NCBI RefSeq assembly: GCF_037042905.1
Contig: NC_087245.1
Span: 25,732,001 to 25,796,000 of the forward strand
Reading direction: 5' to 3'
Origin: Lytechinus pictus
Lineage: Eukaryota
Length of the DNA stretch: 64,000 bases
Shown here: positions 24,420 to 64,000 of the stretch, one piece after another
How positions within the stretch are numbered: the first letter of the stretch is position 1
How the letters are laid out: each line of letters begins with the position of its first letter
Notes under the pieces: generated by a model
Seen by the model: only the letters and a program-made list of their open reading frames with translations
The model's database searches: none
Told to the model about the DNA's origin: nothing
Made by a program: the position numbers and the translations under genes

Positions 24420-24977
24420 GGCAGCGAAATTATTTTGCCCACCAACGTTCTGGACCCCAAGTCTACATGATATGAATATTCATGACTTACGTTTTCGGAA
24501 TAAGAGTACGTATGCGCGTGTACTTCTTTATTGCGGCGAGGAAAAGAGTCTCCCGATCAAAACAAGTGTGCAATTTTTATTACCTCGTACCAAAATCGAC
24601 ATAGAATTTCAATTTAGCATATTGTATTTGAATAAAGAAAGGCATTTTCGGACGATCTCTTTCTTTGCCGATATCGCACAGGTTAGCGTATTTTGATTAC
24701 TTATCGCTTTTGCGTCAAAATCATGCAGAATAGCGCCATAGTCCAGTCATTATCGTCAGAGTTTACATAATCTAGTGCAACGTGTACAAAGTCAGAGGAG
24801 TGCAGGGTTTAGGAGCGCCGCACGAAATTGCCGAATCTCTATAAGTTTCCTCTGCTTTTAAGTCCACGCACATAGTCCACGCAAATGCGTTCTCTTATTC
24901 CGAAGACGCAGGTCATGGATGTTCATATCATGTAGACCTGGGGTCCGGAACTATGGTGTGAAAATAATTTCCCTGCG
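24420..24977. mobile_element. TIR element with ~65-bp inverted ends
   Basis: GAAATTATTTTG...GGACCCCAAGTCTACATGATATGAA mirrored at 24910-24971. Confidence 0.65.
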
Positions 24978-28520: not shown

Positions 28521-29251
28521 TAGATGATTTCACATAGTTGGGTCTATTATATTGTTTTGCGGGAAACTAATGAGGTAATCTTTGTTAGAATAAATGACCT
28601 GACGGTCATAATGCGTGTAAGAAAGCATAATTACTAAGTCATCTTTCACACTAGCCATTTGGTGAAAACCTATTGCCTTTTTTTAAGCACTGTTCAGAGA
28701 TATTTGCAAACGCATAATCCGTGAGTGAAGTGGAGAAATAGCCCAAAGACGATATTCTATTTTAGAAATTTTATGTTTCTTTGGAAGTAGATCTATATAT
28801 AGCACAGGTTCAAATAACGAAATAAACTGAAAATGAAATAGATATGATTCTGATGCAAAGAGGAAAATGATAGAGAGGATTAGAGCGTACAATGGGACAC
28901 GGTCAATGCTCTCCTATATACCGCTGGCCTCAGGGGCCTGTTCACGATGTCAAACTGCGCATCAATGATTTATTTCTTATATTACATGGTATTCAAAGCT
29001 TGGTTACACACTGTGTTTTGGGTTAACCAATTTCTTTTCTTGTATTTCAAGTATAACTATTTATTTGTGTATTTAAGGATTAATGGTTTATTTGAATTTA
29101 ATCAAAACAACAAACACAAATCTAAACACAGGACAATCATTGACAGGTCATTCATAAACATGTTTCATAACCTCAAGTCAACATTTGTCATTCTCGAATA
29201 ACTCCAAGTGAACTATTTGAGAATAACTAAAACTCCAGGTCAAGTTGACAC

Positions 29252-29385
29252 CAGGGGCCCGTAACACAAATTTAACAATGATCGTAGAACAATTTTCTAC
29301 GATTGAGTCGATTGACTACAATGTACAATCAATCTTGAAAATCAAGCGTACGATTAATCGCTAACCTTTGTGTTACGGAACCCAG
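29252..29385. mobile_element. ~135-bp MITE, three copies in the window (also 38527-38663 and, inverted, 40035-40169)
   Basis: GGGCCCGTAACACAAA ... TTTGTGTTACGGAACCC with a shared interior. Confidence 0.85.
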
Positions 29386-29820
29386 AATGTCCATGATACC
29401 AAAGGTTCTTATTTAAATATCTGATTTGAAGCCATTTTAATCTTTTCAAAAGCACATCCTCCAACCCCTTGAAAAAAAATGGTAAGATGAGAAAACGTTC
29501 TTTAAAGGTAGGCATAATAACTTCATGTTAACTACTCGCATTCAATGAAAACTTGAGGTTAATTATTAGACAATAACAGCTCCAGGCCATATTAAATCTA
29601 GATTTCCTATTACATCTAAGACTTTTGTCACATGTACTCTACTCATAGCATTTATCAATGCTATTATTTTTGAAGGATATGCAATGCACGCCCTTCCACC
29701 CACATAAATAAAAACAACGGATGGTCCCATAAAGCATGTATATCCTTACTCAAATTCATCTCTTCTCTTTCAATGATTAATCCATGTCAAATATTTGATA
29801 ATACCAATAACTATATGTCA

Positions 29821-30236
29821 AGTAGCTTATGCAAAGTCTTCATAGCCTATTATACAAGATCATTTATTTTGGAAATAAGGATAACAGTCATTACAGCTCC
29901 AAGGGTGGAAGTTGTTAATTATAGTACATTTCCTTAATATTATTATTTTTCTTCTTCTTCTAAGTTTGGACTAGTGGGCTACAAAGTTCGAGTGAATTAA
30001 TCGTTGATGGTTTTTCCCCCAAGTAGCTTATACAAAATCTTCAGAGCCTATCATATATTAAAGATCATTTGTTTTGAAGATAAGGATAACAGTCATTGCA
30101 GCTCCGAGGCTAGAAGTTGATAATTGTATTTTATTTCTTTAATACTATTATTTCTTTTTATTCTTCATCTTCTTCTTCTAAGTTTGGACTAGTAAACTAA
30201 AATGTTCGAGTGTCTTAATCTTTGATGGTTTTTTCC
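29821..30236. repeat. Two-copy ~200-bp tandem duplication
   Basis: AAGTAGCTTAT...AAGGATAACAGTCATT...GATGGTTTTT at about 29821 and 30021. Confidence 0.85.
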
Positions 30237-32493: not shown

Positions 32494-35012
32494 TTACCAA
32501 AGGTATGTCGCCATGGATGACACAGGAAGTTCTGTATTTTTTTAATAAGCATTGTTGAACGATGTTTAAGCCTTGACGGCAAGTCATAAAAACTGTGACA
32601 CAAAATATCTTAACTTCTCCATGCACTGGGAAGAATAGTGTCTCAAAGTGTGTGCCACAGTATGTTCACAGTATGGAACACACTATGAAATCACCTTCGC
32701 ACTGTTAAAATTTGAGTATTCCAACTGTGTGGATCACATATTCACATGGTCGACCGTGTAAACAAGCTGTGAACAGTCGCATATCCAGGTGTCCACAGTG
32801 TGAAAATATCTCCACATTGTTGAAATTTGTTATTTTTACAGTAAACGAGTAGCAAATAGGCATGAGTGCGATGGTGCGAGATTTCGCATAAGATGAAAGA
32901 AAGATGCTCTATTCACCATGGACCTATCAGAGATGGACATCAATCGGTTAGATAATAAATTCACTAACCGTTGACTATCATTGTCATCTGAAATCCGCCA
33001 TTTCACACGGTACCAAAATAGTAATTTGAATGATGATTCCAGTGAAAAATGTATTTTAAGGACGAAATTTTAGCACGTGTGAAACCGAAGTAGAATCACG
33101 AACGCTAATCACAATCCCGAATTCAAATTCTACTCGGGAGGTGCATTCCAATTAAGTTTCACTCAAATTACGGTGCGGATTTTACGTCTGAAAGGGTTGA
33201 CCTCCAAAACATCTTTTGAGGGGCGGAGCTTACGTGACTTTTCAAGCACTTCCTTAGATCATGCACTCATCGTAGTTTCTTTTTGCGTTGCAGTGCTTTG
33301 ATTGGGTTTCATCGACAAGTCACCAAGGACACAATAGCGCCCTCGCTCAGGAATTCGAATTCGAATTCAAATTCAAATCACAGTTTTCGAGTGAACGTGT
33401 GAATGGTACAATGATTCTAAAGACGAAGTGCAATTATCATTACAATGACGATTCAAGATTCTCGTCTAAAAAGGCCCTAACATTCTCTTCATATTAGTCA
33501 AATGGGTGTGCATTACAAGACTACAATGCTGAGAATATTGCATTATGGGATAGGAACCTGACCAGATATGAGTAATAAAGGAATTGAGGTGGCTCGTGGT
33601 TCGTATTTGCTTCAATAAAGTCATTAAAACGTAGAGATGTATGTAACATAGTTCATATACATGCACATAATGGAGATGTGCTAAAATCTGATTGAACAAA
33701 TAATAAAAGCAAGCTAGAGAAAATGAAAGATACACGAACTCTCACTCTACAAGATGAAGGTATAATGAATGGCAGGAAAATGAGCTTAAAGGCCACTTAA
33801 TGATGGACTTAATCCTGTAGGAGTATTCCAAATTTTGAGAACCCTCGAAAATGTAAATTTTGTGAGATTGGCACTTTTTTAAAGAGTATCTACCTTCTTT
33901 CATGTCCATGAACATTTTCCTTAAATTAAAGTTTGGTATGAAACTACTTGGAACGAACTTTGATAACACCAATACAATATCTGTCATTTTCAAAACCTTT
34001 TTTTTCTGTTGTTTGTCTTAAAAAAGCACCCCCTCTTCAAAAATCTTTCCAAGGGTCTGTTACAACAACTTTGGCAACTCTTTTTATTTAAATATGTTGT
34101 GAAGGAAATTGGGATATAGAATATATCCCAATTATATTATATATATATATAAATAATATATATATATATTGTAATGCCTCCAATGACAACTTAATGACTA
34201 CTAAAACAATAATAATGACTAAACACATAAATATGTAAATTATTATGTAATTGATTTACAAAGTGTTTTGTCCCCTGATACGCTGCATTCCACCCAATTA
34301 ATAAAAAAAAACGATGTTAGTTGTGATGAAGATAAACAAGTTATGGATCAACACAGCATCTCCTTTCACTACAGTATCTTTTGGGTCTATTCTAGGCTGC
34401 CTTTTACCAAGCCGAAATGCATTTGTCATGGCATTGACGTTGGAATAAATGAAAATTGATAATGGGTTTTGTAAAATCACAAACACATATTTCAGTAGGC
34501 TTTTGATTGTGCGGGATCTGGTTGGAATTGAAAACAAGTTCTTGAAAGGTCAAGTAATTCTTCACGTCCAGCAATGTTTTATGGCTTCATCAATCGTTAC
34601 ACAATTCGTGGCAATATCTTACCGTAATTATATCAGTATCTTCATGAATAGCTTTATGCGTATCAGACTATGGAAACGATAACAATTTTTTCTATTTTTT
34701 TTTGTCTGAAAGAGTTTTAAGATAGTGTATATGACGGCTTAACATTTGACTTTGTCACACTTGGAGGGTCGTTTTTATACATTTATTAATGTAAGCGATA
34801 TTTTGTAGTGTATGGTAGTATTTTCTTGCCATTAGTAAAACTACTTTGATAATGAAAACAAAAAAGCATCGTACATTCTCTCCACACGATGTGTTTTCGG
34901 GAGCATACATCAGTGGTTAATACACGATGATTGAAAAAAAATATTATGTAGTGTGATTGGTTCTTTCGTTCGTGCCTTTTTAAAAAAGGGTATCAATTGA
35001 GCCCTTTATATA

Positions 35013-35383: not shown

Positions 35384-35433
<50 letters not shown>

Positions 35434-35561
35434 ACAGCTTTGGCAACTCTTTTATTTAAATATTGTAAAGAAATGGATGAAGAGAACAATGGTAGGCGTA
35501 GCTTAAATCAAGGTCCCCCAGAGCTATCTACCCTTTGGAAAAATTGGTGATGCCGAAAAAA

Positions 35562-35633
35562 TGTCTCTGCCGGGAATCGAACCCGGGCCCCCAGCTTTGA
35601 TCGCCGGTGCCTTAACCACTAGACCACAGAGAC
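35562..35633 (-). tRNA. tRNA-like gene, anticodon TCA, copy 1
   Basis: Reverse complement identical to 36098-36169. Confidence 0.7.
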
Positions 35634-35966
35634 GGGTTAGTGGCTAGGGCGACCCCGATCCGATTGACCGTCAGATAGACAGATTTTCGACACTATACCA
35701 ATTATAATTTCCTTTGTCGGGTGAAGGTGGGTTTCGAACAATGACAAGCCGCCATGCTTCAGCTGGATCAAAGCTATTGCTTTGATACAGTACACGTATG
35801 GGAGAAAGTATACAAATGTGTAAAGTTATACATGTACAACAGCTTTGGCAACTCTTTTATTTAAATATTGTAAAGAAATGGATGAAGAGAACAATGGTAG
35901 GCGTAGCTTAAATCAAGGTCCCCCAGAGCTATCTACCCTTTGGAAAAATTGGTGATGCCGAAAAAA

Positions 35967-36038
35967 TGTCTCTGCCGGGAATCGAACCCGGGCCCCCAGC
36001 TTTGATCGCCGGTGCCTTAACCACTAGACCACAGAGAC
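35967..36038 (-). tRNA. tRNA-like gene, anticodon TCA, copy 2
   Basis: Reverse complement identical to 36098-36169. Confidence 0.7.
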
Positions 36039-36097
36039 GGGTTAGTGGCTAGGGCGACCCCGATCAATCGGATCGGGGTCGCCCTAGCCACTAACCC

Positions 36098-36169
36098 GTC
36101 TCTGTGGTCTAGTGGTTAAGGCACCGGCGATCAAAGCTGGGGGCCCGGGTTCGATTCCCGGCAGAGACA
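36098..36169 (+). tRNA. tRNA-like gene, anticodon TCA, copy 3
   Basis: GTCTCTG TG GTCT AGTGGTTA AGGC A CCGGC GATCAAA GCTGG GGGC CCGGG TTCGATT CCCGG CAGAGAC A + T6: full 72-nt cloverleaf with non-canonical G32/A33. Confidence 0.7.
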
Positions 36170-36502
36170 TTTTTTCGGCATCACCAATTTTTCCAAAGGG
36201 TAGATAGCTCTGGGGGACCTTGATTTAAGCCACGCCTACCATTGTTCTCTTCATCCATTTCTTTACAATATTTAAATAAAAGAGTTGCCAAAGCTGTTGT
36301 ACATGTATAACTTTACACATTTGTATACTTTCTCCCATACGTGTACTGTATCAAAGCAATAGCTTTGATCCAGCTGAAGCATGGCGGCTTGTCATTGTTC
36401 GAAACCCACCTTCACCCGACAAAGGAAATTATAATTGGTATAGTGTCGAAAATCTGTCTATCTGACGGTCAATCGGATCGGGGTCGCCCTAGCCACTAAC
36501 CC

Positions 36503-36574
36503 GTCTCTGTGGTCTAGTGGTTAAGGCACCGGCGATCAAAGCTGGGGGCCCGGGTTCGATTCCCGGCAGAGACA
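36503..36574 (+). tRNA. tRNA-like gene, anticodon TCA, copy 4
   Basis: Identical to 36098-36169, followed by T6. Confidence 0.7.
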
Positions 36575-39439
36575 TTTTTTCGGCATCACCAATTTTTCCA
36601 AAGGGTAGATAGCTCTGGGGGACCTTGATTTAAGCTCCGCCTACCATTGTTCTCTTCATCCATTTCTTTACAATATATATATATATATATATATACATAT
36701 ACATAGCGCTTAATACATCGGAAAGACATCTCTAAGTGTTCTACTTACATAACCCTAACGGATATCCATTAAGCTCACCTGAGAATGGCAAATGTATATC
36801 AATGCTTTTACCAAGGAAAATAGCGTCACAGATTCAAACTCTGAAATTGTATTTTTTCAGTCTGGAGACATTATTATGATATCATGGAATACGAAATGAT
36901 AGTTGGTGTGTTACATCGTTAGGTCCGTATTTTACGTAATGCCAAGATGGGCAGTCTGACGAGCTATTTTCAAAGGAAGCTCAACTTAGAAAATATCATA
37001 ACTTTCTTATTTCACATGAGATTTGGGTGGATTTTCCAATGCGTTGGATATCCGACTGTTTGTTCGAATCAACTTCCTGTGGGGTTGGGCGTGGCCCTTT
37101 CACAATTAACCCTCGGAATAGGCTTTATACGCCTACTGTTGTTTAATATTACTAACATTAATCTTATTATCAAAAAAATAAAAACAGGCCGTGTTGGAAA
37201 CTATCCTGTTTTATTTCACTTTGAAATATCTTCATCAATAATACCGCTTGCTTGAGAATTCCATTTAAGTGCCGAATTTTACTATTCAATGAGTAATCCC
37301 CTTGTTTGTGTTACACTTTTTCTCAAAACCAGACCTATATGAAGATATTTGTGAAAGTGGGTCATGTGTCAGATTTCATAAATTTGACATAGAGATCAGA
37401 CAATACCTCTCAAATCTTTACCAATGCAGATGTGTGCTGATCCAAAGACTAGAGCCCATGAGGCTGATGAAACAGTGTTTAGCCTCGGGTATACACCGAG
37501 GATCATTCATCAACTAAAGATCAGTTGCACTTTACCCAAATCAACTGTCTCTTTCATTTTCGCTCTCTTTTGTGACAGAGTTGCCTACATACTATTCACT
37601 TGATATAAATCGGTTCAATGGGCTCTAACTTCCGTTATTCTATGCAATGATAACCCGTAATCGTCATTTTGCAAAAATCCAGAAAGAAAATGATCTTTCA
37701 TTTACAAACATTTAACCGATAGACTTATCAGTCATGATGCTTCACATTGTCTACCGTCAGTTTTATTTGACGACGCTGTGTTCATGACTTATCACGGTTA
37801 TTTTTTTTTCTCCTACACCCCCCCCCCTGGTTACATGATTATGAAGAAAAAATAGAAATGACAAAAAAATCCAACGCTTCGCCGCAAGGTTGCATTAAGT
37901 CTGCATTACATCACCCCAGATTTTCAACAACTTCGTTATCTCCAATAAAACAACTGATTGTCTTAAAGATATTGATATTAGGATTGTCTAATGTAAAAAT
38001 TAGGACCTGCCATACAATATTCGTTGACATAATTTTGCTTTCCGTGAAGAAACCTTTTTGCTAGTTGTCAAAATCCTTACAACCTCCTCTCTGGTCCAAT
38101 ATCATTTCAACTGAGAGTAATGGATTATATCATAGTCACGTGTCAATCCCACTGACATTACAAAACTGCATTTATTTGATTCTCACTTGTTCTTTCTATT
38201 CACTTACTTCTGTTGTCATCCTGTCTCCTCTCCTCCTTTTCCTAATACAAAAACGAGTAAAATTTATCCCAATATTGGGTAGTAAGGCAACATGCATGTT
38301 TGCTGGGTCCTTTTTTTTTACCCCATATTGGGCAAAATGCATGTTTAAAGGGTAAATTTCAACGCAACATTGCGTAAAATTTACAAAATATTTGGTATCT
38401 TTTTATCGAACCGACAAACATGTTCCCATTTTATCCAATATTGGGTAAACCTTTTTTTTAAGAGTCACGTCATGTTCATGACGCTGCACAAAATGCTACG
38501 TCATTGCCATTTCTGCATGTATTGACCAGGGACCCGAAACACAAAACTTAGCAAATCATCGTAAAAACATTTCTTTACGATTGATTGCATTGACTACAAT
38601 GTGCAATTAATCGTCAAAAGCAAGCGTATGATTAATCGTTAACCTTTGTGTTGCGGGACCCAGGTGACTTCAAATCATCTTTTAGGGTGTTTAGAAGGAG
38701 TGTCTGGCAGACCTGGGGATTAGTTTTTAACTCAATCTTCATACAAAATCAGCCTGAATATGTTATTTTCCGTGAAACGACATCGAGAGAATCGAATACT
38801 TCGGTGTTTCGAAAATTAGACGTATTGGAGGTCATCGTCGTTGCCATGGAAACGTATCTAATATCGTCGTAGTCTGCTAACGAGATTACTAATGTGTGCT
38901 CTCACTAGTCACTGTTGCATCTTCCTCTTCTTGTTTTTAAATATAAATATGGTGACCATTTATTTCCAATTTTGAAACCCTTATGAAATCTAAGAAGAAA
39001 AAAACAGAGACTCGCTATTTTTATCAATACTAACCATTCCCCTTTGACAGCGTAGAGCTTTTTCAGAATCCCGCATTGCTAATGTATCTCAGCCCAGAAA
39101 CCAGGGCTAAACATGTCACATGTTAGAATATCAATTTAAACTTATATGTAATGAAGAGTCTATTTGCTTTCTTCGTCAAATGAGACAAATAAAAATAAAC
39201 TATTTTTATGATCATCATCAAAATTACCATTTAGAATAAAATTGATAATGATGATGGTGATAATAATGATGTTAATGAAGTTGTTATTGTCATTAAAGGT
39301 ATCGTTATTGCATCGATGCCAAACCTAGGTTAGTCTGCAAGCACAAACTCATATTTCACACTTTAACCAATAAAGGTCTAGAGTGAAATAGACGCCTAAG
39401 GTCACACGGGCCTAACTACAACTGGCAGGCCAAAGATAT

Positions 39440-39840: not shown

Positions 39841-40354
39841 CTAAATGAATTAGGTCTGTGATACCCTAAGGATCTGTCTGTGTCAAATAAGTAGATCCAG
39901 CCACAGTCCATAACGAATCTAGTCTAATTCAGACTCTGCATTAAGCACTATACAAATTGCAAAAACCAAGGGTCTGTGCCTGATGTGAAGACTAACCCTA
40001 AGTCACGACTCTAGTGCATTTCTGACATGTTCTCCTGGGTCCCGTAACACAAAGGTTAGCGATAAATCGTACGCTCGATTTTCACGAGTGATAGTACATT
40101 ATAGTCAATGCAATCAATCGTAGAAAAACGTTTTACGATCATTGCTAAGCTTTGCGTTACGGGCCCCAGGAAATAAATTCATTTTATTCATAAAAATCAC
40201 TCATGCGTGACCATACAAATGCCATTTTGTAATATCACATCCATATCAAAACGGATCATTAAAAAATCAATTATTTTTACATCATTCGATTGCAGATCAA
40301 ATTTCAACGGGCCATGTTTTACAGGTCATGTAGACGTCACGGCGCGCGTGTTAA

Positions 40355-41493
40355 AGGGATGATCCGGGCTGAAAATATTTATAAAAAATATCTTAATACA
40401 TAAAATAGAATTTACTGAGCAAAATGCCGAAAATTTCATCAAAATCGGATAACAAATAATAATGTTATTGAAGTTTAAAGTTTAGCAGTATTTTGTGAAA
40501 ACAGCGTCATTAATATTTAATAGGTGGGCTGATGATGTCACATCCCCACTTTCCGTTTTCTTATGTTATTACATAATTTTTTTTTTTCATTACTTCATAC
40601 TTGTGTGAATAATATGTCTCCCTTATAATGAAATAAGTTGCGGCAATAAATATCTAATGCACTAATTCAGTTGTCAATCCACTTTTTCTAGTTCTTGGAG
40701 GAAAAAATTTGAATAAACCTAATTTCATATAATAAAATACAAAAGAACAGGTGAGGATGTGACCCCGGGGGGGGGGGGGGGGCACTCGACCAAAAAAGTG
40801 GTAGGGGTGTGCCGCGGGCGAGGCAAAAAACGGGGGCCTTGGAGCGGGCTTATTGTAAAAAGGAGGGTCCTCGGAACGGGCTTCGGAACTACAAATGTTT
40901 GTGAAAACGGGGGTCCTCGGAACGGATCTCCGTATCTCTGTGAGTGCGTATGCATCCCTATGGAACGGGCAATCGTGCATGACGCAGCTAGCGCGGCCTC
41001 CGCCGGCTGCGCTCGCGCTTAGGCGATGGTCGAAAAGCGCTCTACGGCCGCTTTTCACCAAAATTGTGGCTGATCAATGCGACCGGAACGGCGTAACGAA
41101 AAATATGCGACGCTTTGGAGCGGATTTCTTTCTTCTTTTTTCTCGATAAGAAGGAAATGCTATGCCTTGGAGCGGCTTTCTTTGTTCTTTTTCTCAATAA
41201 GACAAAAAATGCTATGCCTTGGAACGGAAATTTGAGCGTGAAAATGGGGGTCCCCTCCGCGGCACATACCCACTATGCATTATATACTGAGTGCCCCCCC
41301 CCCCCCGGGGATGTGACATCTTCAGCCCACCTAATGAATATTCATGACGACTGTTTTCACAAAATATTGCTAAAATTTAAAATTCAATAACTTTGTTATC
41401 TGTTATCCGATTTTGATGAAATTTTCGGCACTCTGCTCAGTGAATTCTACTCTATTTATTAAGCTATAAATACTTTCAGCCCGGACCATCCAT
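40355..41493. mobile_element. Palindromic Kolobok-like element (TTAA TSD) with a nested insertion
   Basis: TTAA|AGGGATGATCCGGGCTGAAA ... TTTCAGCCCGGACCATCCAT|TTAA; long inverted arms. Confidence 0.85.
40764..41309. mobile_element. 546-bp non-autonomous element with poly-G TIRs and 8-bp TSD (hAT-like)
   Basis: GATGTGAC|CCCG(n)CACTC ... GAGTGC(n)GGG|GATGTGAC. Confidence 0.9.
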
Positions 41494-42419
41494 TTAAAAT
41501 GAAATAAAAATTATAACGATCAATCAACTTCGAAAATAGAATACGTTTTAGAAACGCAATGCCTTTACACAATAATAACTCGATGTTTTTTCATGTCGCT
41601 ATTTGATTTATCATAATTTTAAGCAATTTCATGCTTAGTAAATTAAGAGGCTTTTTTTATAGGAGGAAATTATAGTTTGTTAACTAATTTTTCGGCATTA
41701 CTCCTATTTGTTTAAGATCAGTATGCTCGATCTGGAATGGAAATCATAAGATCATAAGTCAGAAAAAATTGGAACCAGTGGGATTCGAACCTGCCATCTA
41801 CTGCTTCATTTCATGCTTGTTCAGCTTTCTATTATCGTTATTAAGGAAATAAGCATCCGTATCATCTTGCAGCACCTGCACTCGCACTATCTCACCATAT
41901 AGGCTTGATATGGTGAAAAAAGTGGCTTTATGGCCAACAAACTCATCACAGCTCTTCAGAATTATAAAGTTTTATTTGACCCTCAAAAGTACTATGGCAT
42001 AATCAAAATTAAGTTTGAACTAGAAAATTACAAACACATCATCAACTTATCTAAATTGGACTCTAATGATAATAATATATACATGCTTACATCGCGTTTG
42101 TCACTTACTTTATCAGAAGTCCCTCGTTGCTCCGTAAACTCCGTATATATGGTTGTTTATTGTCTAATTATCGATATGTTGTAGCTGAGGGAATAATCAT
42201 GTACGTATTTTTTTATTTATATGATAACGTCGTTGCCACAAAATTACGATTTATTGAAGCGCCTCAATTTTTTTTATTGTGCGTGAAATCTTTATGGGAG
42301 ATGTCCTTTTTTTCAAAACTGGATTCTTCATTCATGATTTTTAGTAGCAATATCTTCATTATTTCCTGTGCTCGCTGAGATTAAATAAATAATTGTTGTA
42401 ACCAAGTCTGTGGGCCATT

Positions 42420-42611
42420 CACTGTAAAAAACGATGTGCTAATGTAGCACTTACAGTGCTTGTATATCGTAACTGCACTACGAGTGCTGATTTTCTAGTT
42501 CAAATTTAAACTAGAAACCAGCACTCGTAGTGCAGTCACTATACAAGCACTCGTAGTGCAGTCACTATACAAGCACTGTAAGTGCTAAATTAGCACTTCA
42601 TTTTTACAGTG
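42420..42611. mobile_element. Palindromic CACTGTAAAAA MITE with a small internal tandem duplication
   Basis: CACTGTAAAAA...TTTTTACAGTG; AGCACTCGTAGTGCAGTCACTATACA occurs twice. Confidence 0.85.
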
Positions 42612-46347: not shown

Positions 46348-48791
46348 TTTTTGTCTCACCTGCGAAGCAGAGTGAGACTATAGGCGCCGCTTTTCCGACG
46401 GCGCACAGTGGGCCGGGGCGAAACAAAAGTGCGCCAAAAGTCATTTTGGGCAATTTCAGATTTTTAATTTTTGTCATGCCCAGCTGAAAGACAACACTTT
46501 GAAGAATACTTCAGCAAAATATTTCATTCGGGAATTTGCATAAAGGTTGTTAATTTCCTACCTCAAATCGTAAAATGTGAAATTTTGCGAAATGCCGCGT
46601 GTATGACAACTTAGTTGAAAAACAAGCAATTTCACGGGAGGTTTTTCATGGAGGAATCTGAAATGGCACCCACATAATCCTGATATATTCTTTTTTTCGT
46701 GTGAAATGGTTCAAATTAGAAAAAAGACGATACCAGCTGCCCGTTTTTGCCCGTTTTCATGTTAGAGCCGATTTTACTTGGCACAACACCCCCAAAACCT
46801 ATTAAAAAACGGTCATTTTTATACCGCGCAGTCATCGCAGCGCACCGTGTGTGGTGTACATCGCCGTTCATTTTTGCACGGCGAGGACGATTCCCCCTTC
46901 CATTCCATGAAAAAGACATGAATTCCTGGCATAATGCAAACAAAATAAAAGTTGATAACGCATATAAGGGCTTCCCGCCCCTCTTCCAGAGATAAAATTT
47001 ACTTGTAGAATAATTTCAGCCAAAAGCCCTCCTCACAGTAAAACATTCGTGGTCCTATATACTCTGCGTTTTACCCAAGTCTACACCGCTTGATAAAGCA
47101 CGGTTAATATTTTTCAGATTTTTAAGTATTTTTTTAATCAAATGATCACTTTGATGCCATATAATTATTTTCAGGATCCCATACACACTTGTTAGGCATG
47201 TGAGAAGCATAAACCAACATTCACTCTGGTCAATCTTAAAGTAACACATAACACAAAGTTTATATACTACACATTGTTTAGCGTAATTTGTCTTTTCACA
47301 GATAGGTTTTAAGTAGCCAATCAAAATTTGGTATCAAAGTGACGTCATATCGGCTTTAAATTATGTTCAGTCGATTCTACGCCTAAAATTACCCTTAATC
47401 AGCATGTTTAAGTAAAAATATAACACGGAATATAATTTTGGCGCACTTTCAACTCATTCTGGCCCACTGTGCGGCGGCGGCGGCGTCAACGCCAAATCGT
47501 AACCCAAGGTTAAGTTTTTGAAATGACAACTTAGAAAGTATATAAACCTAGTTCATGAACTTGGACATAAGGTTAATCAAGTATTACTAAACATCTTGCC
47601 TGAGTTTCAGGTCACATGACCAAGGTCAAAGGTCATTTAGGATCAATGAACTTAGACCATGTTGGGGGAATCAACATCAAAATCTTAACCCAAGGTTACG
47701 TTTTTGAAATGACAGCATAACTTAGAAAGTATATAAACCTAGTGCATGAACTTGGACATAAGGTTAATCAAGTATTACTAAATATCTTGCCTGAGTTTCA
47801 GGTCACATGACCAAGGTCAAAGGTCATTTAGGGTCAACGAACTTAGACCATGTTGGGTGAATCAACATCAAAATCTTAACCGAAGGTTAAGTTTTTGAAA
47901 TGTCGTCATAACTTAAAAATATATATATATGGAATTAGTTCATGAAACGTGGAAATAAGGTTAATCAAGTATTACTGAACATCCTGCCTGAGTTTGAAGT
48001 CACACGACCAAGGTCAAAGGTCATTTAAGGTCAATGAACTTTGGCCATGTTGGGGGTATAATTTGAATTACCATCATAACTTTAAAAGTTTATGGATCTG
48101 GTTCAGGAAACTTGGACACATAAGTAATCAAGTATCACTTAACATCCTGTGTGAGTTTCAGGTCACATGACTAAGGTCAAATGTCATTCAAGGTCCATAA
48201 ACTTTGGCCATGTTTGAGATATTTGTGGAAATACCACCATTACTCTGTAAGTGTATTGGTCTAGTTCATAAAACTTGGACATAAGAGTAATCAGGTATCA
48301 CTAAACATCCTGTGCGAGTTTCAGGTCACATGGCTCAGGTCAGTGGACTTTGGCCATGTTGGTGTATTTGTTAAATAACCATCATAACTCTGAAAGTGAA
48401 TAGATCGAGTTCATAAAACTTGGACATAAGAGTAATCAAGTATAATTAAACATCTCATGCGAGTTTCAGGTCACATGACCAAAGTCAAAGGTCATTTAAG
48501 GTAATTGAACTTTGGCCATTTTAGAGGTAATTATTAGATTGCTGTCATAACTTTCAAAGTTTATAGTAAAGTTTATAAAATGTGGATGTAGGGGTAATCA
48601 AGTATCACTGGCGAGTCTTTGGTCGTATGATCAAGGTCAAATGTCATTTAGGGTCAATGAACGAAGTATTGTATCATTATATGAATGGTGTTTTTTGTGA
48701 ATAATAATTTTATAGTAGTTTTCAAAGTCAGCACTGCTGCAATATTGAATCGTGCGATGTAGGTGAGACTGTCAGAGGCGCTCCATTTGTT
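46348..48791 (+). mobile_element. Helentron-associated (HINE/DINE-like) element with a central ~180-bp tandem array
   Basis: SubTIRs GTCTCACCTGC / GTAGGTGAGAC, T-rich insertion site, (GGC)n tract, and 6-7 units containing GGTCACATGACCAAGGTCAAAGGTCA at ~47500-48665. Confidence 0.8.
46404..47471. mobile_element. Transib-type non-autonomous transposon with 5-bp TSD
   Basis: CGGCG|CACAGTGGGCC-N11-AAAGTGCGCCAAAA ... TTTTGGCGCACTTT-N11-GGCCCACTGTG|CGGCG. Confidence 0.85.
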
Positions 48792-49322: not shown

Positions 49323-49383
49323 AGGGTGTGTGTGTGTGTGTGTGTGGGTGTGTATGTGTGTGTATGTTTTGTGAGATTATACA

Positions 49384-49503
49384 TGCACAACAGCTTTGGC
49401 AACTCTACGGCATCACCAATTTTTCCAAAGGCCAGAAAGCTCTGGGGAACCTTGATTTAAGCTACACCTACCATTGTTCTCTTCATCCATTTCTTCACAA
49501 ATC
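49384..49503. repeat. Internally deleted relative of the 35.4-36.7 kb palindromic element
   Basis: Left terminus ACAACAGCTTTGGCAACTCT fused to right terminus CGGCATCACCAATTTTTCCAAAGG...CATCCATTTCTT; adjacent to (TA)n/(TG)n. Confidence 0.85.
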
Positions 49504-62880: not shown

Positions 62881-64000
62881 CACTACTCAAAAAAAGTTAA
62901 GGACCACTTTTTAAAACGTACATAAAGATTTTATACAAGGTGTTTTATTTCTGGAAATACCTCAGTACAACTGTCCTAAATGTCCTTAAACACGCTGTAA
63001 TCAATTTCACGCATGGGTGGTTTCAGTTGTTGCACAATGTCTCTCGCATCACTGCACATCCTGAAAAGTGGGCCCCGAGGGGTATCAGCTACCGACATGA
63101 AGTGGTAAAAACGAATATCTGAGTGTCTTTCAGGCAGTTCAGTAACGAGTGTGACCACCTCCTGCAGCAATAACGGCTTCACAGCGCTGTCTCATGGAGC
63201 TGATGAGGCGATTGATGTCTCTGACGTCCAGTGCATCCCATGCAGCCTCCAGAGCCACACCCAGCTGCTGCAGTCCAAGTGGATGGGCTTCGAGCTGCTC
63301 GAGACTCCTCCCCATCATGTCCCAGACGTGCTCTATCGGGTTTAAGTCCGGGGACCTCGCTGGCCACTCCATACGCTCAATCCCCTGGCCCTCAAGGAAC
63401 TCGGTCACCACCCTAGCTCGGTGGGCACGGGCATTGTCATCCATGAAAATGATGTTTTGTCCCACATTTTCTGCAAATGGCACCACTATAGGTTCAAGGA
63501 CCTCATCCCTGTACCTCACCCCTGTCATTGCTCCCCCTGGGACCACGTAGAGACGAGTACGGTTGGCGTAGGTGATGCCTCCCCACACCATGACGCTGCC
63601 TCCCCCATAACGGTCATGTTCTGCAATACAGGGGTCTGCAAATCTCTCTCCTGGTCGCCTCCAGACTCTCGAACGTCCATCATTGTGGTCAAGGGAAAAT
63701 CTGCTCTCATCTGTGAACAGAACTCTACGCCATTGCTGTCTGGTCCATCTGACATGCTCCCGGGCCCAGTTGAGACGAATTCTTCTGTGAGCAGGGGTGA
63801 GTGGGACACACTGAGCTGGCCGTCTGGCATGCATATTGGCTCTGTGAAGTCGGTTACGGATTGTTTGAGTGGAAACAATCACGCCAGTTGCTGCAGCGAA
63901 GTCATCGTTGAGGTGGCGTGCACTGTGAAAGCGGTTGCGGAGGCTGAGATTCGTCAAGTAGCGATCATCTCTAGGGGTTGTCGAAACTGGTCGGCCACTG
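62881..64000 (-). mobile_element. Tc1 transposon, 3' part (truncated by the window)
   Basis: TA|CACTACTCAAAAAAAGTTAAGG TIR ~260 bp after the transposase stop. Confidence 0.9.
63139..64000 (-). CDS. Tc1-family DD34E transposase (5'-truncated by the window)
   Basis: Open to the window edge: SGRP..., VLFTDESRF, VMVWGGI, FMDDNARAH, WPARSPDLNPIEHVW; 34 residues between the second D and E. Confidence 0.97.
   Translation of the reverse strand, partial: SGRPVSTTPRDDRYLTNLSLRNRFHSARHLNDDFAAATGVIVSTQTIRNRLHRANMHARRPAQCVPLTPAHRRIRLNWAREHVRWTRQQWRRVLFTDESRFSLDHNDGRSRVWRRPGERFADPCIAEHDRYGGGSVMVWGGITYANRTRLYVVPGGAMTGVRYRDEVLEPIVVPFAENVGQNIIFMDDNARAHRARVVTEFLEGQGIERMEWPARSPDLNPIEHVWDMMGRSLEQLEAHPLGLQQLGVALEAAWDALDVRDINRLISSMRQRCEAVIAAGGGHTRY

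Follow-up and report, generated by a model that had tools for sequence, protein, structure and literature searches.

A young head-to-head insertion of the Penelope type carrying a tRNA-like gene in Lytechinus pictus

We analysed 64,000 nucleotides of Lytechinus pictus (contig NC_087245.1 of assembly GCF_037042905.1, positions 25,732,001 to 25,796,000 of the forward strand; this whole stretch is called the window, and all coordinates refer to it), in which a palindrome of 405-bp units occupies 35428-36676 within a (TA)n tract. The element is a non-autonomous derivative of Penelope-like elements (PLEs), with a known architecture and a new content, and the palindrome is a real, young insertion of the PLE type, an artefact being made unlikely. 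It was quite probably produced in one recent event, in which the reverse transcriptase (RT)-endonuclease of a PLE mobilised the element in trans, primed on both target strands, and the 3' ends of the two cDNAs were joined. Five of the six features of non-autonomous PLE derivatives were found: a tandem with a pseudo-long terminal repeat (pseudo-LTR), an inverted truncated copy, a tail at one end only, an AT-rich or microsatellite target, and no open reading frame (ORF) for RT or endonuclease; the sixth would be a 3' end in common with an autonomous PLE of this genome.

A preliminary description of the stretch had reported a 1.2-kb near-perfect palindrome of tandem 405-bp units, about 1.5 in each direction, flanked by (TA)n and free of ORFs, and this geometry was confirmed. 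The reverse-complementary arms (35460-36065 and 36071-36676) are 606 bp each and differ at exactly two pairs of positions (35499/36637 and 35905/36231). The direct period is 405, and 35427-35660 matches the sequence 405 bases onward without a mismatch. TA runs are present at 35386-35428 and 36673-36705, and a target duplication is unreadable within (TA)n. No frame of at least 100 amino acids lies within or spans the element, and none of its scanned shorter frames had a Pfam match above the cut-off. To the right of the left target tract (35386-35427), the left arm contains 1.58 units (638 nt), namely a full unit (L1, 35428-35832) and a second, 5'-truncated unit of 233 bp that forms the pseudo-LTR (L2, 35833-36065), both with the tRNA sense on the minus strand. 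The right arm, of about 1.5 units, contains on the plus strand an inverted 5'-truncated unit (R2, 36071-36303) and an inverted unit of 373 bp that lacks the tail (R1, 36304-36676). Read on the minus strand, with the tail at the 3' end, the order is inverted copy, truncated unit, full unit, 32-nt tail and (TA)n. The tail (35428-35459, minus strand), which the preliminary description had not noticed, is on the left arm only, and the right arm passes straight into its target tract (36673-36705). The first four nucleotides of this tract, ATAT, are common to the unit, so that the tail measures 32-36 nt. Both arm mismatches are in the right arm, in different unit copies, at the adjacent unit positions 72 and 73; they may be systematic read errors, an RT error hot spot or family variants, and the arms are identical if they are errors.

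Insertions of PLEs are described as a partial tandem with an inverted 5'-truncated copy, a tail of 30-40 bp and a (TA)n target in the relevant part of Craig et al. (2021, PMC8557442). According to the part of Frangieh et al. (2024, PMC11167929) that is cited here, a PLE protein in vitro cuts and extends both strands of AT-rich DNA and starts at two internal RNA sites whose spacing equals the tail; hammerhead cleavage was not required and the RNA was unprocessed. With priming at two sites and on both strands, the two cDNAs should lie head-to-head and be shifted against each other by the length of the tail, which is the arrangement seen here. In the mechanism that we propose, a long RNA of at least 1.6 units in the tRNA sense would be transcribed from a tandem copy elsewhere, and a PLE protein would bind it and cut both strands of the (TA)n tract. 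Each cut end would then prime cDNA at one of two internal RNA sites about 32-36 nt apart, aided by short TA-like pairing. Both cDNAs would extend for about 1.5 units, and their 3' ends would be joined via the stem of a native 5-bp hairpin, giving a head-to-head palindrome with the tail on a single arm.

This scheme, including the joining at the fold-back centre, is inferred, whereas the geometry and, as described below, the reuse of both start sites in an older copy, the tRNA gene and the absence of an intact ribozyme are observed. The 5-nt loop there, AATCG (36066-36070, plus strand), is native right-arm sequence, being the loop of the unit's own 5-bp hairpin, and the junction requires only 2-5 nt of pairing between the two cDNA 3' ends. 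A lone cDNA turning back on itself at the right end would have had no way of gaining the tail, and folding back from the left end would have left a complementary loop, unlike the loop seen. The preliminary description had suggested a young non-autonomous family with the pseudo-LTR architecture of PLEs at microsatellites, copied from a circular or multimeric RNA with template switching. Its first part is supported by the tandem, the inversion, the tail and the target. In its second part, the template longer than one unit stands, while neither a circle nor switching is needed; template switching becomes superfluous since the inversion and the tail both follow if one cDNA was primed from each target strand.

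Two older relatives, both unnoticed in the preliminary description, are present in the window. Copy B (49377-49503, minus strand) is made up of the tail side (unit -7 to 23) and, directly attached, an inverted piece (49408-49500, unit 128 to about 33-36) beside a TA-rich flank. It matches the unit at 87 of 93 and 29 of 30 positions (about 7% diverged) and has the same build as the main copy with a different inner junction. The left end of copy B is 7 nt past the unit junction and within 8 nt of the main left start, and its inverted piece ends beside the TA-rich flank within 3 nt of the main right start. The chance that both ends coincide so closely is about 0.001 by simple arithmetic (about 17/405 x 7/405). 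Depending on where the left end is placed, the tail of copy B is 32-42 nt. Relic C (34061-34115, minus strand) is a decayed tail region adjoining a TA run, so that TA-rich flanks occur at both relatives. Past relic C, 34110-34175 contains a short perfect-looking hairpin, a TA run and then 9 nt that match the unit forward from the second start site, which may be chance. Among the 405 positions of the unit, the left start of the main copy is the best for pairing with (TA)n (7 nt with one wobble), and the right start is among the five best exact ones. Both arms span the unit junction.

These copies bear on whether the inversion was made by an assembly or library fold-back. The arms are 99.7% identical, assemblies are known to have difficulty with inversions of PLEs (PMC8557442), and a systematic read error could account for the neighbouring mismatches of the right arm. 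However, the mirror ends 32 nt before the element does and does not enter the left flank, and the right flank is different DNA, which argues against a fold-back. The main argument against a fold-back is copy B, a diverged and independent insertion that shares the tail and the inverted end and that starts and ends at the sites of the main copy. We therefore attach very little probability to an artefact. Even less goes to a fold-back duplication at the DNA level, in which a replication template switch or breakage-fusion would have begun at the native hairpin of a resident tandem copy. The centre of the palindrome is indeed this 5-bp hairpin, but the unit is rich in hairpins of this kind (14 listed, some overlapping), and the inverted-arm end shared with copy B would be left unexplained, the inner junction of copy B being elsewhere.

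Several observations weigh against priming by a PLE protein as proposed here. The inversion is known only from the assembled sequence, and the family comparison is limited to three members. No autonomous PLE partner was found within the window, and neither of two 12-nt tail motifs occurs in the supplement text of PMC8557442. A search of metagenome contigs with the tail motif gave three loci, all of which match just the 20-21 nt motif and are chance matches. At the start sites, no significant counterpart to the AC-rich stem-loop of PAc emerged (92, 188 and 137 of 200 shuffles were as good). In vitro priming took place without target homology (PMC11167929), unlike the TA pairing here. Finally, the six thymines behind the tRNA-like module described below should stop RNA polymerase III (Pol III), which argues against simple Pol III read-through as the origin of the long RNA.

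The content of the unit is dominated by a tRNA-like gene that the preliminary description did not notice. ARAGORN and Rfam both detected four identical 72-nt cloverleaves in the element, with the nominal anticodon TCA, at 35562-35633 and 35967-36038 on the minus strand and at 36098-36169 and 36503-36574 on the plus strand. Each is directly followed by a T6 run resembling a Pol III terminator (35556-35561, 35961-35966, 36170-36175 and 36575-36580, the last on the plus strand). Within the 405-nt unit, the tRNA is at 200-271 and T6 at 272-277. The Rfam tRNA score was 52.4 bits (gathering threshold 29); the tRNA-Leu gene of the host, at 8144-8226, scored 58.9. The cloverleaf is complete in its 21 stem pairs and retains the elbow residues and an exact B box, with T6 coming after position 73. 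A 12-nt A-box pattern did not match the cloverleaf. The cloverleaf has the 11-nt form in common with all 13 fetched tRNAs, since the search pattern demands it. Most likely, the module was inherited from a tRNA-headed ancestor of about 200 nt as a Pol III unit complete in itself, with A box, B box and T6.

The anticodon loop is abnormal, with G32 and A33, compared with a pyrimidine and U in all 13 fetched tRNAs. A tRNA-Sec has a long variable arm and a 9/4 fold, and any decoding tRNA has U33 with a pyrimidine at 32. Since the cloverleaf has a 7/5 fold, a 4-nt variable loop and this abnormal loop, it is not a tRNA-Sec and is unlikely to be a decoder. Both a tRNA-Sec and a functional UGA suppressor were rejected on these features and on the length of 72 nt. 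ARAGORN nevertheless calls each copy a UGA-reading tRNA, and these miscalls are four of the five tRNA calls in the window. The host tRNA-Leu gene (minus strand) is single and apparently genuine with a long T run behind it, and is adjoined by a 255-bp AT-rich palindrome (8246-8500, 82%).

Among the loci with both arm motifs, 9 of 13 are tRNA-Glu and 4 of 13 tRNA-Gly; their identity to the cloverleaf is 42-52 of 72 positions, the top match being a tRNA-Gly in a set that does not include host tRNAs, and either isotype may be the parent of the module. Some of the tRNA-Glu genes, which start with TCC, are in bacterial genome records, several on very short contigs (L006, L007, L009, L010, L012, L013, L014, L016 and L018). 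They look like eukaryote-type genes, possibly from host contamination. In viral contigs, the T-arm motif gave two loci, both ordinary tRNAs, and the pattern for both arms gave none.

A tRNA within a short non-coding repeat raises the question of a tRNA-derived short interspersed nuclear element (SINE). tRNA-derived SINEs have a tRNA head with A and B boxes, and twin priming produces inversions. Here, a tRNA with both boxes stands at the 5' end of the 206-nt right half of the unit, which could be the head of an ordinary SINE with a 134-nt body, inserted by a long interspersed nuclear element (LINE) through twin priming, with the inversion expected from it, and tandemly duplicated later. The T6 run directly after the tRNA and the absence of a poly(A), A-rich or simple-repeat tail are against this. 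Moreover, L1-type twin priming has each arm copied from its own part of the RNA, but the arms here share 606 bp, and the moving unit takes in 199 nt upstream of the tRNA with both arms running across the unit junction. Such a history is very improbable. In having a tRNA head with A and B boxes the element is like the SINEs treated in Kojima (2024, PMC10886601). It differs from SINEs in its mid-unit tRNA with T6 directly behind, in having PLE-type ends and in lacking a LINE-type tail, and an assignment to tRNA-derived SINEs was rejected on the tRNA position, the terminator and the tail.

The unit is itself a decayed palindrome, which is a new finding here. In the tRNA sense, unit positions 1-198 can be aligned over their full length to the reverse-complemented 3' half with a score of 217 (null 123 +/- 17), which was reached by none of 1000 shuffles and none of 82 GC-matched windows. 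A scan for symmetry centres peaked at the 5' end of the tRNA and at the equivalent unit junction. The mirror is strongest over unit 145-198 (0 of 2000 shuffles), which is a relic of the tRNA in antisense orientation, shortened by a 19-nt deletion and lying directly upstream of the tRNA (36448-36501, plus strand; also 35635-35688, minus strand). The leader-versus-tRNA comparison gave a z of 5.4, compared with -1.9 to 1.5 for 14 real tRNA genes. At this deletion lies the native 5-bp hairpin (36466-36480, plus strand; also 35656-35670), the homologue of the fold-back centre, so that the present fold-back is located at the deletion of the relic. Most likely, the 405-bp unit arose as an earlier head-to-head pair of the ancestor of about 200 nt, one half of which then decayed. 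Against this origin, none of the outer mirror segments reaches significance by itself (418, 335 and 484 of 2000 shuffles), 4 of 1000 shuffles match the alignment under stricter scoring, and 16 of 614 windows of any composition reach a score of 217. An initial test of internal symmetry that excluded the tRNA was not significant (score 20, null 18.6), so that significance depends on including the tRNA. G-U pairs account for 3 of 20 mirror mismatches, which is no enrichment, and thus the pairing shows no sign of selection. The 6-mer CAAAGC, present four times in the unit, was not significant either (30 of 300).

An 8-bp hairpin in the unit (36350-36370, plus strand; also 35766-35786) has a 3' arm that is complementary to the anticodon arm over 10 nt (2 of 2000 shuffles, a post hoc test). 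This complement may explain the odd anticodon loop, and the mirror alignment does not account for the hairpin.

The unit begins with TG and ends with CA, with short terminal inverted matches, and it carries tRNA A and B boxes, so that it could be read as the tRNA-bearing LTR, in tandem, of an element of the Helenus/TRIMp3 type (PMC10886601). According to the section of Kojima (2024) on these elements, they too are non-autonomous, and their internal Pol III promoter, derived from a tRNA, is mistaken for a tRNA gene, with suppressor types among the calls; they have two LTRs, a primer-binding site, a polypurine tract and duplications of 4-5 bp, and their RNA structure does not support a tRNA function. 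The present element has none of these LTR signals, and its cloverleaf is fully paired. The units abut without an internal region, a polypurine tract before a TG was not found, primer-binding-site matches to the 3' ends of a limited set of 15 tRNAs were at most 5 nt, and the right end and the inner ends are truncated. Moreover, the TG...CA symmetry is weakened as an argument because it follows from the unit being a palindrome. This explanation is largely refuted and scarcely tenable, and a Helenus/TRIMp3 assignment was rejected on the abutting units, the missing polypurine tract, the right end truncated within the unit and the (TA)n flanks.

The symmetry of the two halves also accounts for the stable rod into which the unit RNA folds (z -5.8, and -5.5 in 60 shuffles with the tRNA held fixed). 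As equilibrium predictions only, the antisense leader beats the cloverleaf in a long RNA (-47.3 versus -29.4 kcal/mol; whole unit -137.3 versus -114.4), and in a transcript with a short leader the best fold keeps three of the four tRNA arms. The antisense relic is thus predicted to mask the cloverleaf in the long RNA.

This prediction bears on the main rival to our proposal, which is also the nearest to the circular RNA of the preliminary description. The element would be the same PLE parasite, in which the cloverleaf replaces a hammerhead: RNase P and RNase Z would cut multimers to monomers, which were perhaps circularised and copied round. All stem pairs and the elbow residues are kept despite the drifted anticodon loop, the centre of the fossil palindrome is the 5' end of the tRNA, the inner break of copy B is just 3' of T6 and about 6 nt from the RNase Z site, and there is a weak match to mascRNA (20.7 bits, gathering threshold 42.5). 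On the other hand, the antisense leader is predicted to outcompete the cloverleaf in the long RNA, and neither arm of the main copy ends at a tRNA boundary, both stopping 27-34 nt upstream. RNase P and RNase Z leave a 5'-phosphate and a 3'-OH. These ends differ from the ribozyme-type ends used by RtcB, the ligase that circularised retrozyme RNA (PMC7229834). We consider processing of this kind improbable.

An Rfam scan for ribozymes was negative, in agreement with the preliminary description, in which no hammerhead core had been found by eye. No ribozyme family was among the 48 Rfam matches up to E 10, nor at the gathering threshold over the whole window. Pattern and descriptor scans for an intact hammerhead core were negative, and CUGANGA is on neither strand. 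Since an intact ribozyme was not found, a linear multimer suffices as the template; the RNA could have been circular but need not have been.

Two segments picked out post hoc are candidates for a hammerhead relic that has been split. Half A (36374-36405, plus strand; also 35731-35762, minus strand) has the core CTGAAG, the 3' strand of helix II and GAAAC. Half B (35477-35491, plus strand; also 36645-36659, minus strand), which is antisense to the tRNA, has the core ATGAAGA and the 5' strand of helix II. In half B the near-core is followed by 8 nt, and in its mirror, half A, the near-core is followed by the complement of those 8 nt and GAAAC. Combined, they give an 8-bp helix II that opens with G-C, and none of 4000 shuffles reached 8 bp in a test devised after the candidate had been seen. 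Minimal PLE hammerheads have a helix II that opens with G-C (PMC4209133). Neither helix I nor helix III nor the cleavage triplet of the candidate could be recovered, and the motif of the tRNA-bearing half runs antisense to the template strand. From these sequence motifs, a hammerhead relic split between the unit halves has about even odds.

The unit might descend from a retrozyme whose ribozyme was lost and which re-emerged as a palindrome of itself: an ancestor of about 200 nt with a hammerhead and a tRNA would have inserted head-to-head, the pair would have become the new mobile unit, and the decayed antisense half would serve as a switch. Short Pol III transcripts would fold as a perfect cloverleaf, and the long template RNA would form a rod in which the cloverleaf is out of reach of RNase P and RNase Z, and would stay intact for copying by the PLE. 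We regard this history as rather unlikely.

Among known systems, the insertions of the PLEs Naiad, Hydra, Neptune and Poseidon are like the element in the tandem, the inverted 5'-truncated copy, the tail and the (TA)n target without a readable duplication (PMC8557442, PMC11167929). Naiads are also without canonical hammerheads, and the Hydra elements of a sea cucumber also prefer (TA)n, as stated in the part of PMC8557442 on these groups. The element differs from these PLEs in lacking an ORF for RT or GIY-YIG and in having a 405-bp unit that contains a tRNA-like gene and is itself a decayed palindrome. Similar to the element, the non-autonomous Chlamys elements, such as MRC1, are non-coding, with pseudo-LTRs, multiple head-to-tail copies and microsatellite targets, and the Chlamys clade is mostly without hammerheads (PMC8557442). 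They are from green algae, their 3' ends resemble a known autonomous partner, and no tRNA module is described for them in the cited part of that paper.

Animal non-LTR retrozymes are tandem non-coding units of similar size with structured RNA, and they are proposed parasites of PLEs (Cervera and de la Pena, 2020, PMC7229834; Li, Clavereau and Pollet, 2026, preprint 10.64898/2026.07.22.740005). The 405-bp unit is within their size range of about 150-450 nt. They are defined in these sources by a type I hammerhead in each unit, whereas the element has at most a decayed split relic, and it has a tRNA gene. A classification as a non-LTR retrozyme was rejected by definition, a type I hammerhead not having been found in the unit. 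In the literature searched, mostly outside subscription journals, we found no description of a Penelope-type element with a tRNA, SINE or Pol III module; Repbase, Dfam and preprint supplements were outside this scope and could hold the family.

The preliminary description had also placed the element inside a putative intron of the seventh copy of a cGLR-like gene, a placement that is unsupported. Of the stop-to-stop frames of at least 62 amino acids, 176 of 177 were compared with Pfam (the one dropped duplicates a scanned element frame), and neither a Mab-21 nor another host domain turned up in them, nor in 118 of 134 frames of 38-61 amino acids between 27.5 and 44.5 kb (16 microsatellite frames or duplicates inside the element were dropped), although very short exons could escape. 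A nucleotidyltransferase motif was in none of the six frames, and no paralogous coding series was found among 486 frames.

The only Pfam matches above the cut-off in the window were to a Tc1/mariner transposase, whose open frame (63142-63999, minus strand) runs past the window end (DDE_3, E 2e-19; HTH_Tnp_Tc3_2, E 1e-18). Other repeats in the window include a tandem array at 47494-48662 with units of 163-191 bp and the motif GGTCAAAGGTCA, and palindromes or inverted-repeat pairs resembling miniature inverted-repeat transposable elements (42420-42611, 40351-41497 and 24421-24976; 75-86% identical). A dispersed repeat of about 140 bp is present in three copies in both orientations (29250-29385, 38525-38667 and 40031-40170; 83-87% identical), and there are old tandem duplications at 6381-7201 (about 420 bp) and 29819-30236 (about 200 bp), which are 77-79% identical.

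For annotation of this genome, the miscalled cloverleaves will inflate counts of suppressor or selenocysteine tRNAs. For the PLEs, the element provides natural genomic support, in a non-coding case, for two-site priming on both strands, which so far came from one protein in vitro. It also shows that a hammerhead is not required for the spread of a PLE-type parasite, here one with a complete tRNA cloverleaf. The fossil palindrome suggests an origin for such units and a reason for the rod-like shape of their RNA. If the unit did descend from a retrozyme that lost its ribozyme, PLE inversion would be a recurring generator of structured-RNA parasites, and this locus would be its second round.

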